64,000 bases of DNA. Origin: a virus. Positions 59,127-62,071 of this stretch are shown one piece after another. The stretch lies in the IMG/VR virus record IMGVR_UViG_3300045988_167796, positions 4,032 to 68,031 of that record; one strand, 5' to 3'. The notes under the pieces are model-generated. The model was not told where the DNA came from and made no database searches. It saw only the letters and a list, made by a program, of their open reading frames with translations. Within the stretch, counting starts at the first letter, position 1, and every line of letters starts with the position of its first letter. The translations under genes and the position numbers were made by a program.

Positions 59127-62071
59127 ATGAATGTAATAAAAAAAGATTTAACGAAAGAACCATTTAACGACCAAAAAATTGTTGATGCAGTAAATAAATC
59201 AGCAAGCAGAGTTATGGTTAATTTATCAAATGATGACTATAAACAAATTATTGATTTAGTATGGGATAATCTTATAGAGGATGATGTTGATGAAGAAAAA
59301 GAATGTACAGTAGAAGATCTTCATAATGCAGTTGAATCTGCGTTAGAAGAATTTAATCCTAAAATTGCAAAGAGTTATAAAGATTATAGAAACTATAAAA
59401 AAGATTTTATTCATATGATGGATCAGGTTTATGCTAACGCGCAAAAGATTCGTTATATTGGTGATAAAGATAATGCAAATACAGATAGTGCCCTCGTTGC
59501 CACAAAGAGAAGTCTGATTTTTAACTCTCTTAATAAAGAGTTATATCAAAAATTCTTTATGACTGTAGACGAACGTCAGGCATGTAAAGATGGATATATT
59601 TATATTCACGATATGTCTGCAAGACTTGACACAATGAATTGTTTTAGAAGAGATACACGCTTTATTACAGAATTAGGAGTTAAATCATTTTATGATTTTA
59701 AAGACGGAGATACAATAAGAGTTTTAACTCATAAAGGTAATTGGAAAAATGCGGTTGTAAGGTCTTATGGATGGCAACCCATTAATAAAGTTACGTTAAA
59801 AAGAGCTGCAGGAAAATCAAAAGACATATATTGCACAGCAAATCATCGATGGATTTTAAAAGATGGTACAGAAACAACAAATTTGAAAATTGGAGATAAA
59901 TTAATTGCTGCTCCAGATATTACTAATTACGAATGGAGTAGTTTGACTAAGTTAGAAAAATTATTATGGTGTATTGGGTTCGGTATTGCAGACGGCAGTA
60001 TAGTCCAAGATAATAGTATTCCAATTATGATGATTAGATTGTGTGGGCATAAAAAAGATTTTGCTTATCGATTTGAAGACATTGGATACATTGTGACATA
60101 TCCGAATTCGTTAAACGGAGATGGACAAGTAAGGATGTATGATATTCACACAAAAGAATTACCATGGATGATTTTAAATGCAGAAAATGTCAGGTATTTA
60201 ATAGACGGATTCATGTCTGCCGACGGAAATAAATCTTCATCGGATAATTATAAATACAGAGGCATTCAAGTAACAGGTGATTTTAATAAATATATTTATG
60301 ATTTATTAAACATTGCAGGACAGTATGTAAGTTCTACAAGAGATTTGACAGGGGAAGAAACTAATTATGGTATAAGAAAACAAACAACAATTACATATCA
60401 AACATGTAGCAATCAAGGAGATCGAACGTGGTTCGTAGAAGATATCAAAAAAGATAAATTAAATTCAAAATCAAAAGTATGGTGTTTAGAGGTAGAAGAT
60501 GATCATAGTTTTATCTTAGAAGGTGGTATACCGACTGGGAATTGTTGTCTTTTCCGTGTAGGAGAAGTAATGCGTGGCGGTTTTGAGATGGGAAATGTAT
60601 GGTATAACGAACCCAATTCATTAGATACGGCATTTGATGTTATGGGCGATATTATTCTGAGTACCGCTGCACAGCAGTATGGCGGGTTTACCGTGCCGGA
60701 GGTGGATAAGATACTGGCTCCTTATGCCGAAAAATCATATATAAAATATAGAAATGAATTTTTAGAATGGTGTGATTCAAATTTTGAAGATAAAGCAGAT
60801 GATTATGCTACTCAGAAAGTAAAAAGAGATTTTGAGCAGGGATGGCAAGGAATTGAGTATAAGCTGAATACAGTAGGTTCTTCCCGCGGGGATTATCCAT
60901 TTGTAACGATGACATTTGGATTAGATACGTCAAAGTTTGGGAAAATGGCTTCTATCACATTTTTAAATGTACATAAAGAAGGTCAGGGGAAAGAAGGATT
61001 TAAGCGTCCAGTTTTATTCCCAAAACTTGTATTTTTATATGATAAAAATCTTCATGGAGAAGGATGTATTAACGAAGATGTGTTTAATGCAGGAATTGAT
61101 TGCAGCATGAAAACAATGTATCCTGATTGGTTATCTCTTACAGGAGAAGGATATGTCCCTTCTATGTATAAGAAGTATGGAACGGTTGTGTCTCCGATGG
61201 GGTGTCGTGCCTTTTTAAGTCCTTGGTATGAACGTGGTGGTATGGAACCTGAAGATGAAAATGATAAAGCTATATTTGAAGGACGTTTTAACCTAGGTGC
61301 AATAAGTCTTCATCTGCCTATGATACTTGCAAAAGCAAGACAAGAAAGTAAAGATTTTTATGAGGTACTTGATTATTATTTGGAAATGATTAGAAATTTA
61401 CATAAAAGAACGTATGACTATATTGGGGAACTAAAAGCATCAGTGAATCCAGTTGCGTATTGCGAAGGTGGTTTTTACGGAGGATATCTTAAACCAGATG
61501 AAAAAATTAAACCAATTTTAAAACCTATGACTTTATCATTTGGTATTACGGCTCTGAACGAGCTTCAGGAGCTTTACAATGGAAAATCCATTGCTGAGGA
61601 CGGACAGTTTGCATTAGAAGTAATGGAATATATCAATAAAAAACTTGCTGAATATAAAAAAGAAGATGGGTTATTATATGCTATTTATGGCACACCTGCA
61701 GAAAGTCTTTGTGGATTGCAAATTGAACAGTTCCGTAAGAAATATGGAATTATTGAAGGCGTGTCAGATAGAACATATGTAAGTAATAGCTTCCATTGTC
61801 ATGTTACAGAAGATATTAGTCCAATTGAAAAGCAGGATCTCGAGAATAGATTTTGGAATTTATTTAATGGTGGAAAAATTCAGTATTGTAGATATCCAAT
61901 TTCTTATAATAAAGAAGCTGTTGTTACTCTCATTCGAAGAGCAATGGATATGGGGTTGTACGAAGGCGTAAATCTTTCACTAGCGTATTGTGAAGACTGT
62001 GGTCACGAACAGTTAGATATGGATGTTTGTCCTGTGTGTGGAAGTCATAATATTACAAAAGTTGACAGGAT
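59127..62071 (+). CDS. nrdD: anaerobic ribonucleoside-triphosphate reductase NrdD, exon 1 (contains intein 59640-60542); annotated ORF runs to stop 62099 if unspliced
   Basis: N-terminal ATP-cone (VIKKDLTKEPFNDQKIVDAV). C-terminal CxxC...CPVCG zinc ribbon. No glycyl-radical motif before the stop. Confidence 0.75.
59640..60542 (+). mobile_element. intein (301 aa) with LAGLIDADG homing-endonuclease domain inserted in NrdD
   Basis: Starts CFRRDTRFITELG (block A). Two LAGLIDADG motifs LLWCIGFGIADGS and YLIDGFMSADGN. Ends ...ILEGGIPTGN with +1 Cys. Extein without it is 689 aa, normal for NrdD. Confidence 0.7.

Follow-up and report, generated by a model that had tools for sequence, protein, structure and literature searches.

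A probable LAGLIDADG-bearing intein at the catalytic cysteine of a phage nrdD gene that also carries a group I intron

We analysed a 64,000-nt stretch of viral DNA (positions 4,032 to 68,031 of IMG/VR record IMGVR_UViG_3300045988_167796; the window hereafter), and specifically its nrdD gene, which encodes the class III ribonucleotide reductase (RNR) of a phage of about 172 kb. A 301-residue segment of the NrdD reading frame is very probably a bifunctional mobile intein, in which a HINT protein-splicing domain holds a single-chain, two-motif LAGLIDADG homing endonuclease. We consider the intein real and its predicted activity probable. It sits directly before the catalytic cysteine of the enzyme, and the same gene is interrupted further downstream by a group I intron.

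The open reading frame (ORF) at 59127..62099 on the + strand encodes a 990-aa NrdD and contains the segment in frame. Pfam assigned an ATP-cone to residues 1-92 and NRDD from residue 468 on; the approximately 300 residues between them were unexplained, their sole match being a sub-threshold one to Intein_splicing. The initial annotation had placed a 301-aa in-frame insert at 59640..60542, and its coordinates and description of the sequence were correct. The insert comprises 903 nt and 301 codons, opens with Cys (TGT at 59640-59642, CFRRDTRFITELG), closes with Asn (AAT, ...GGIPTGN) immediately before two Cys codons (TGT TGT, CCLFRV), and contains two LAGLIDADG motifs, LLWCIGFGIADGS at intein residues 108-120 and YLIDGFMSADGN at residues 186-197. 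The window copy is intact: it has no frameshift or stop codon, and neither a splicing residue nor a LAGLIDADG aspartate is missing. Its parts are listed below, with the evidence for each in brackets (AF2, AlphaFold2 model).

59640..60542, + strand: the intein, 301 aa from Cys1 to Asn301, made up of a HINT splicing domain with a LAGLIDADG homing endonuclease inserted in it (exact boundaries; AF2; Foldseek)
59640..59678, + strand: splicing block A (CFRRDTRFITELG), with Cys1 as the canonical first nucleophile (Cys1 in 20/20 and 28/28 aligned relatives)
59835..59852, + strand: core of splicing block B, T66-A-N-H69-R-W71, with Thr at B:7, His at B:10 and Trp at B:12 (T66, H69 and W71 invariant)
59928..60422, + strand: LAGLIDADG homing-endonuclease domain, approximately intein residues 97-261 (stretch missing from mini-intein P0039; AF2; profile; Foldseek)
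59961..59999, + strand: LAGLIDADG motif 1 (LLWCIGFGIADGS), catalytic Asp118 (direct reading; Asp118 in 18/20 relatives)
60195..60230, + strand: LAGLIDADG motif 2 (YLIDGFMSADGN), catalytic Asp195 (direct reading; Asp195 in 17/20 relatives)
60474..60518, + strand: splicing block F (KVWCLEVEDDHSFIL), with Cys282 at F:4 and His289 at the F:13-equivalent position (W281 and C282 invariant; H289 in 18/20 relatives)
60522..60545, + strand: splicing block G and Cys+1 (GGIPTGN|C), with Thr299 at G:5, Gly300 at G:6 and Asn301 at G:7 (T299, G300, N301 and C+1 invariant in the close family)

Comparison with known inteins by fold and by profile, a check proposed in the initial annotation, returned a HINT domain plus a LAGLIDADG domain. 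The AF2 model of the insert with eight flanking residues on each side, made with 24 relatives, had a predicted local distance difference test score (pLDDT) of 90.7 and a predicted template-modelling score (pTM) of 0.88. Foldseek searches of the PDB with this model returned the inteins PI-SceI (E 1e-8) and PI-PkoII, the mini-inteins Ssp DnaB, Npu and Ssp DnaE, gp41-1 and Mtu RecA, and the free LAGLIDADG enzymes I-DmoI and I-Tsp061I as well as WhiA (E 6e-4 to 3e-3). The endonuclease part was modelled as two alpha-beta-beta-alpha-beta-beta repeats, and the predicted LAGLIDADG helices (intein residues 104-118 and 184-195) terminate at Asp118 and Asp195 (...GFGIAD118G and ...GFMSAD195G). A profile of the full intein family matched I-DmoI at E 5.8e-4, with motif 2 aligned to both I-DmoI motifs, and a HINT-only profile, in which blocks B, F and G kept their register, matched the DnaE inteins at E 2.6e-5 and gp41-1 at E 2e-4. 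Against Npu DnaE the three blocks paired as tknhrW/TKDHKF, vWCleveddhsF/VYDIGVERDHNF and GivtGN/GFIASN. As VWCL aligned to VYDI of Npu DnaE, Cys282 takes the position of the usual Asp at F:4. The NCBIfam model intein_Cterm (TIGR01443) matched residues 280-301 at 19.4-22.9 bits, above its cut-off of 15.6. The endonuclease domain was delimited with P0039, which has the same ends at the same NrdD site and lacks the middle.

The insert is a presence/absence polymorphism among closely related phages. Comparing the window protein (P0049, from a 171,722-bp ENA metagenome contig) with two other natural alleles, both metagenomic, P0050 (689 aa, locus L005) and P0051 (710 aa, locus L004), gave a clean 301-residue indel at N171|C172; this was the alignment to intein-less NrdD that the initial annotation had called for. 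Both alleles are 98% identical to the window's exteins and read ...LDTMN|CCLFRV... without the insert (context ...SARLDTMNCCLFRVGEV...). At the DNA level the extein sequence is 92% identical to L005 and L004, with 168 nucleotide differences, almost all synonymous, beside the 98% protein identity. The extein DNA alignment with L004 and L005 has zero differences from -48 to +25 around the junction. We considered these 74 identical nucleotides as a conserved homing site or a co-conversion tract and rejected them as evidence of either, as the gene has other identical runs of 72-87 nt. Among the best 120 extein relatives listed (83-98% identity), 119 are without the insert and the sole carrier is the window's own protein. 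The solved NrdD structures (T4, a C. difficile-type enzyme and one other) are also uninterrupted at the junction (...FTN78-C79CL...), with IHDxx aligned upstream. Three states of the locus were found: intein and intron together (the window), intron alone (L005) and neither (L004).

The site itself is catalytic. T4 NrdD P72ALPFTN78C79C aligned to GGIPTGN|CC, which places the -1 residue at Asn78 and the +1 residue at Cys79; the last residue of the N-extein, Asn171, likewise aligned to T4 Asn78. Cys79 (Cys175 in E. coli, Cys125 in T. maritima) is the cysteine of the reductive half-reaction and is conserved across all RNRs, and mutation of Asn78 kills NrdD activity (PMC4493059). The insert parts the equivalents of these two residues, and the precursor should therefore be inactive before splicing. 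In the same alignment the splicing nucleophile Cys+1 doubles as the NrdD catalytic cysteine. Such a site is typical of inteins and introns, which as a rule settle in codons that cannot be spared (PMC2988022).

The insert is no chance pattern: hundreds of RNR genes have it, bounded in the same way. A word-indexed search found 48 relatives, almost all within NrdD, and HMMER, run exhaustively with a profile of the family, yielded 2,611 cluster representatives at E<=1e-3, 408 of them at E<=1e-30. There are two kinds of host: in NrdD the insert lies at about residue 170, and in class II B12-dependent RNRs, recognised by RNR_Alpha, RNR-II_ins_dom and Ribonuc_red_lgC, it lies at about residues 90-110. 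The N|C context is found in both host types; thus one intein family occupies the homologous universal cysteine of two RNR classes. Relatives of 33-59% identity all share the residues needed for splicing, C1, T66, H69, N301 and C+1. Key positions were counted in 160-163 full-length domains taken from the best profile hits.

Position -1: Asn in 155/160 family domains
Position 1: Cys in 158 and Pro in 5 of 163 family domains
Block F, F:4: Cys in all family sequences inspected
Block G, G:5: Thr in 159/160 family domains
Penultimate residue: Gly in 148/160 family domains
Last residue: Asn in 158/160 family domains
Position +1: Cys in 160/160 family domains

The family is overwhelmingly viral, with 225 loci in IMG/VR compared with 3 loci, all in metagenome-assembled genomes, among 185,579 species (one genome each). 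With tblastn the insert was found in Morganella phage MP1 (L001), Klebsiella phage FBKp34 (L002), Vibrio phages V6Aob (L003) and PVo5 (KT345706), and two human-faecal phage contigs. In MP1, FBKp34, V6Aob and PVo5 it occupies the same NrdD site, and the records name the product NrdD or hypothetical protein and mark no intein. Several class II RNRs of 1,300-1,800 aa (P0169, P0170, P0172, P0183, P0191 and others) have two to three intein-profile matches each, and in every one of them a copy occupies the N|C active-site cysteine, around residue 90-110.

The nearest intein (71% identity) is in L012 and similar IMG/VR loci on viral contigs of 160-166 kb, whose host exteins are merely 59% (N) and 68% (C) identical to those of the window. 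The intein is thus more similar than its conserved host, while the nearest relatives of the window's lineage have no intein, a pattern in the sequences that indicates lateral acquisition and not vertical descent. For the window intein and its nearest relative the ratio of non-synonymous to synonymous substitution rates (dN/dS) was unreliable, with synonymous sites saturated (dS 1.6), and the pair L012 and L013 (dS 0.16) alone was used. Here dN/dS was 0.05 overall, 0.064 for the endonuclease part and 0.058 for HINT-N; these low values point to purifying selection on both activities in the nearest relatives. Losses expected from the homing cycle are seen in a small number of family members: of one LAGLIDADG Asp, of the terminal Asn, or of the endonuclease as a whole. 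One relative, P0039, is a 147-residue mini-intein without an endonuclease domain at the identical NrdD site (...LDTTN|CLRV...TGN|CSLF), which fits a stage of endonuclease loss.

The residues and fold suggest how the element would act on DNA and on protein. In a co-infecting phage without the intein, the endonuclease would recognise and cut the uninterrupted nrdD sequence ...GACACAATGAAT|TGTTGTCTTTTCCGT... (the empty site in the L004 and L005 alleles is GACACAATGAAT|TGTTGTCTTTTCC), and repair off the intein-bearing allele would copy in the 903 bp, which is homing. In the precursor protein, Cys1, aided by Thr66 and His69, would attack the Asn171-Cys1 peptide bond to form a thioester, and the N-extein would be transferred to Cys+1. 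Cyclisation of Asn301 would then release the intein, its likely helper being block F His289 instead of a penultimate His (Gly here), and an S-to-N shift would restore ...TMN-CCLF.... Cys282, which replaces the usual Asp at F:4, most likely coordinates the two junctions, and might also open an alternative way to the branched intermediate. Functional inteins are documented for both deviations, the missing penultimate His and Cys at F:4 (PMC5050341; PMC4031507). A penultimate Gly is known in efficiently splicing phage inteins, and a mycobacteriophage intein with Gly splices better than its Gly-to-His mutant (PMC5050341).

Several results weigh against an active mobile intein. Splicing and DNA cleavage are deduced from residue conservation and a modelled fold, and the catalytic set of a textbook class 1 intein is incomplete, with the penultimate His missing (Gly300) and Cys in place of Asp at F:4. 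Curated models respond poorly to the window copy: Pfam Intein_splicing scored 24.0 bits against a gathering score of 35.8, the Pfam LAGLIDADG models gave no match at E<=0.01, PHROGs had nothing for the intein, and a single-sequence phmmer search of the PDB returned noise only. The search for a near-identical copy of the window intein in another genome found none, leaving recent homing not directly documented, and the 74-nt identical stretch at the insertion site is not statistically unusual. Some relatives do pass Intein_splicing (P0010 at 36.8, P0172 at 84.8). LAGLIDADG_3 is significant in three RNR relatives with two to three inteins each, where the best stretch lies outside or merely overlaps this family's copy; P0010 is below threshold for it. 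The missing His and the weak scores would fit a decaying, splicing-incompetent relic, with the phage nrdD a pseudogene or complemented by a host NrdD. Degeneration of this kind has been described for Campylobacter phage RNR genes under intein load (PMC3653736), and some family members are without endonuclease aspartates or the terminal Asn (for example P0001, which ends ...TGT, P0014 and P0030). However, the window copy has no frameshift or stop and keeps its splicing residues and LAGLIDADG aspartates; Gly at the penultimate position is the norm of the family (148/160) and not a lesion, and is also found in phage inteins that splice efficiently (PMC5050341). In addition, the extein differs from the intein-less alleles almost solely at synonymous sites (168 nt, 98% protein identity), and nrdG and the glycyl-radical exon are intact. 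We therefore regard a relic as very unlikely. Every deposited phage record with the segment annotates it simply within NrdD, as would be expected of a lineage-specific insertion domain kept in the mature enzyme. This possibility, close to the one by which the initial annotation could have failed (a normal NrdD domain present in intein-free homologues), is effectively refuted: neither the 98% identical intein-free orthologues nor any solved NrdD contains the segment, which has Cys1 and Asn|Cys at its flanks, combines the HINT and LAGLIDADG folds, splits two catalytic residues, and recurs at the homologous Cys of another RNR class.

A closer contest concerns the chemistry of splicing and not the identity of the element. 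The intein is not a textbook one, a refinement to the initial annotation: as read from its sequence, the penultimate Gly is accompanied by Cys at F:4, giving a class-3-like WCT triplet (Trp71 at B:12, Cys282 at F:4 and Thr299 at G:5). The triplet is invariant in the aligned relatives, in a register checked against DnaE and gp41-1. It defines class 3 inteins, in which the N-terminal junction is attacked by Cys F:4 instead of by residue 1 (PMC2807308; PMC7664689). In a class-3-type or dual reaction Cys1 would be dispensable or a parallel route, and Cys282, activated by His69 and Thr299 and packed by Trp71, would form a block F branched thioester that passes to Cys+1. The invariance of WCT here and across the family is in keeping with such chemistry, as are the highest Foldseek local identities, which were to WCT-grafted gp41-1 (24%), MchDnaB1 (23%) and Msm DnaBi1 (22%). 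Five family representatives, all in class II RNRs, evidently persisted without Cys1 and have Pro1 instead (P0205, P0251, P0265, P0277 and P0308; for example ...SSFN|PGRRSTKF and ...SQFN|PLPADTRF). W, C, T/S, the terminal Asn and Cys+1 are all retained in them, which amounts to a class-3 signature within a Cys1 family, and they are mutual nearest neighbours (46-64% identity; 44-51% to the nearest Cys1 members). Their persistence suggests that the predicted active site of the family can work without Cys1, and is the reason why a class-3-like or dual pathway was kept under consideration. Nevertheless, by accepted definitions the intein as sequenced is not class 3, since Cys1 is present and strongly conserved, and it also has TxxH, Cys+1 and an RNR host in place of a helicase. 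The presence of Cys1 in 158/163 family domains over deep divergence implies selection on Cys1 itself. Thr B:7 of the TxxH motif (T66-A-N-H69, in register with TKDH of Npu DnaE) is invariant, whereas class 3 DnaBi1 has DxxH (PMC6195587); the +1 residue is Cys, whereas in nearly all class 3 inteins it is Ser or Thr (PMC2807308); and the host is neither a helicase nor a P-loop gene. The sequence profile matched class 1 DnaE and gp41-1 and zero natural class 3 structures (neither 6bs8 nor 6riy). Among class 1 inteins, those with Cys at F:4 form a recognised, polyphyletic group (PMC3196547); only one residue is commoner than Cys at this position (PMC4031507); and three WCT inteins that begin with Ser1 or Cys1 had been pointed out before by Tori et al. 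(PMC2807308). Class-3-type or dual chemistry is therefore improbable, if clearly less so than a relic, and we retain initiation at Cys1 as the working mechanism.

If Cys282 can initiate splicing, this RNR-specific, essentially phage-borne family could represent natural dual-pathway intermediates between class 1 and class 3, possibly with redox gating in addition; we put this forward as a tentative idea with the odds against it. Were it true, the family would mark an origin of, or a reservoir for, class-3 chemistry outside helicase genes, and Cys1, Cys282, Cys+1 and Cys+2 would place three to four thiols at the junctions of an oxygen-sensitive enzyme. With thiols clustered in this way, splicing could be redox-gated and NrdD released under reducing, anaerobic conditions alone. 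By analogy such gating is conceivable, because Cys F:4, which is located between the two junctions, works as a redox switch in one class 3 intein (PMC6195587). Whether class 3 arose from class 1 by loss of a single residue is disputed (PMC3196547 vs PMC7664689). Hundreds of natural sequences in this family combine Cys1, Cys at F:4, Cys+1 and a penultimate Gly, and together with the Pro1 variants they offer a test of that origin.

The rest of the nrdD gene and its neighbour are laid out as follows.

59127..59639, + strand: nrdD N-extein, 171 aa, ending ...IHDMSARLDTMN (ATP-cone and start of the NrdD core; collinear with intein-less P0050 and P0051)
60543..62071, + strand: nrdD C-extein, exon-1 part, from CCLFRV... 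to ...ITKVDR plus 2 nt (Pfam NRDD; NCBIfam TIGR02487)
62072..62367, + strand: group I intron, 296 nt, ORF-less (missing in P0051/L004; present in P0050/L005 at 95% identity)
62368..62458, + strand: nrdD exon 2, (M)NGYLGYTRVHGDTRYNKAKNDEIADRVSM*, with the glycyl-radical motif (read directly; matches the C-termini of uninterrupted P0051 and P0053)
62469..63011, + strand: nrdG, the NrdD activase and operon partner (translation MNYHDIK...CDHYCPEC; Fer4_12 and Radical_SAM domains in the source-contig gene call)

The initial annotation described nrdD as doubly invaded, and this held: the intron-less allele P0051/L004, which sets the end of exon 1, delimits a 296-nt insert with group I core elements. 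The uninterrupted allele reads ...ITKVDR-M-NGYLGYTRVHGDTRYNKAKNDEIADR(I/V)SM, and the intron splits nrdD directly before the glycyl-radical motif (VDR|MNGYLG). Its 5' exon ends in U (...AGGAU) and the intron itself in G (...AUAUG), and the differences between the L005 and window introns include one compensatory G:C to A:U change in a hairpin. Rfam did not detect the intron at the gathering threshold; a permissive local scan (701-nt search) gave RF00028 at 20.7 bits (E 0.0068, gathering score 50) with the P3/P4/P6/P7 core aligned, and minimum free energy folding was uninformative (z = -1.49). Judged from the allele sequences, the intron is real. At such a score, far short of the gathering one, the intron and exon 2 would both escape annotation pipelines.

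NrdD is otherwise intact. The C-extein aligned to T4 NrdD residues 72-575, including SPMGC(290)R and the C-terminal Cys4 motif, and exon 2 carries GYLG. The initial annotation stated that removal of the insert restores a 689-aa NrdD. This is right for the ORF product, since excision leaves 689 aa and natural P0050 has the same length and is 98% identical, but not for the mature protein. The 689 aa are the exon-1 reading frame running on into the intron, where it ends ...VDRIENPFVLYK*; the predicted mature NrdD after RNA and protein splicing is 710 aa, as in the intron-less and intein-less P0051. Because the insert splits the equivalents of Asn78 and Cys79 and exon 2 bears the glycyl-radical site, active NrdD is predicted to require both RNA splicing and protein splicing. 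A megablast search of 50,697 phage records with the nrdD region gave no match, which places the phage itself outside that collection. The mechanical nrdG ORF (62397..63011) overlaps nrdD exon 2; its real start is the ATG at 62469, given the source-contig gene call and the conserved N-terminus (MNYHDIK...).

In all annotations, those of the four cultured phages included, the gene stands as an ordinary NrdD of excessive size; correct annotation of intein and intron yields the true 710-aa enzyme. Its activity hangs on two self-splicing events, one to re-form the Asn-Cys dipeptide of the active site and one to join on the glycyl-radical motif. The three-state series of close phages (92% nucleotide identity in extein DNA) provides defined donor and recipient sequences for homing assays. 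The basic verdict is unchanged: an intein in a phage RNR gene is a familiar selfish element, and this one is notable solely for its unusual set of catalytic residues.

Inteins and group I introns are well documented in phage RNR genes, including both in one gene, and the window intein is in that sense expected. Bacillus phage SPbeta bnrdE is, like the window nrdD, a phage RNR large-subunit gene with a group I intron as well as an intein, both in conserved critical codons (Lazarevic et al. 1998; Derbyshire & Belfort 1998, 'Lightning strikes twice', as cited in PMC3653736); it differs in being class Ib (nrdE) and not class III, and the likeness is one of description. Among phage nrdD genes likewise interrupted by inteins and/or introns, NrdD inteins are reported for Clostridium phages c-st and D-1873 and, as remnants, for Lactococcus phage 949 (PMC3653736), and the gut 'Jug' jumbo phages have nrdD in four fragments (PMC12880540). 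A tblastn search of phage c-st with the window intein gave no match, either with the full sequence (E<=1e-3) or with the HINT part only (E<=1), and nrdD was not found in the first 50 kb of the c-st annotation. The lack of a tblastn match implies that the c-st intein is of a different family or at a different site. T4 nrdD (sunY) is also a phage nrdD with a group I intron. The window intron is below the gathering threshold of RF00028, has no ORF and lies immediately ahead of the glycyl-radical motif, at VDR|MNGYLG.

Among inteins of solved structure, the best structural matches were PI-SceI (the yeast VMA1 intein) and PI-PkoII (E 1e-8 to 5e-5), which share the two-domain architecture and the Cys1...Asn|Cys chemistry. 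They differ in sequence (10-11% identity, template-modelling score about 0.5) and in length (454-537 aa, compared with 301 aa here), and the window intein is without their extra DNA-recognition region and has Gly, not His, as penultimate residue and Cys, not Asp, at F:4. The closest solved inteins by profile were the class 1 mini-inteins Npu and Ssp DnaE and phage gp41-1, with blocks A, B, F and G in register. The DnaE inteins likewise have no penultimate His (...ASN/...AAN); in contrast to the window intein, these split or mini-inteins of replication genes have Asp (DnaE) at F:4, Phe at B:12 and no endonuclease. Class 3 inteins (MP-Be DnaB, Dra Snf2, Msm and Mch DnaB-1) share the WCT triplet and the association with phages, and most have LAGLIDADG endonucleases (PMC2807308, PMC6195587, PMC7664689), but they have no N-terminal nucleophile, usually carry Ser/Thr at +1, reside mainly in helicase/P-loop genes and are reported to be monophyletic. 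In the literature searched, with InBase outside the search, no name was found for a family with the N|C site in class II and III RNRs and the combination of Cys1, WCT and Gly-Asn.

Other relatives have more heavily interrupted nrdD genes. At L007 5001..10564, which encodes P0005, nrdD is in four coding pieces; piece 1 carries an intein of the window intein's family, and each of the three inserts after piece 1 has an endonuclease ORF (HNH_3, GIY-YIG and HNH_3). In P0002, P0004, P0005, P0011, P0012, P0019 and P0023 and in L012-L038, many first nrdD ORFs stop a few residues past 'SQQYG'. In other relatives the stop comes past 'SSRGD(F/Y)P' or close to 'SPMGCR'; none of these stops occurs in the window. 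This pattern suggests several recurrent intron sites in conserved NrdD motifs of the relatives. L005 has an extra 205-aa ORF at 6425..7042, between nrdD exon 2 and nrdG, that is not in the window; it has no Pfam match and may be another mobile insertion. Elsewhere in the window, a cluster of four tRNA genes (Rfam, gathering threshold) lies at 40671..41724 on the + strand, and an 808-aa ORF at 30812..33238 on the + strand matches the Pfam Major Vault Protein shoulder (E 3.9e-22) and Vault repeat (E 2.3e-8) families, which are unexpected in a phage.

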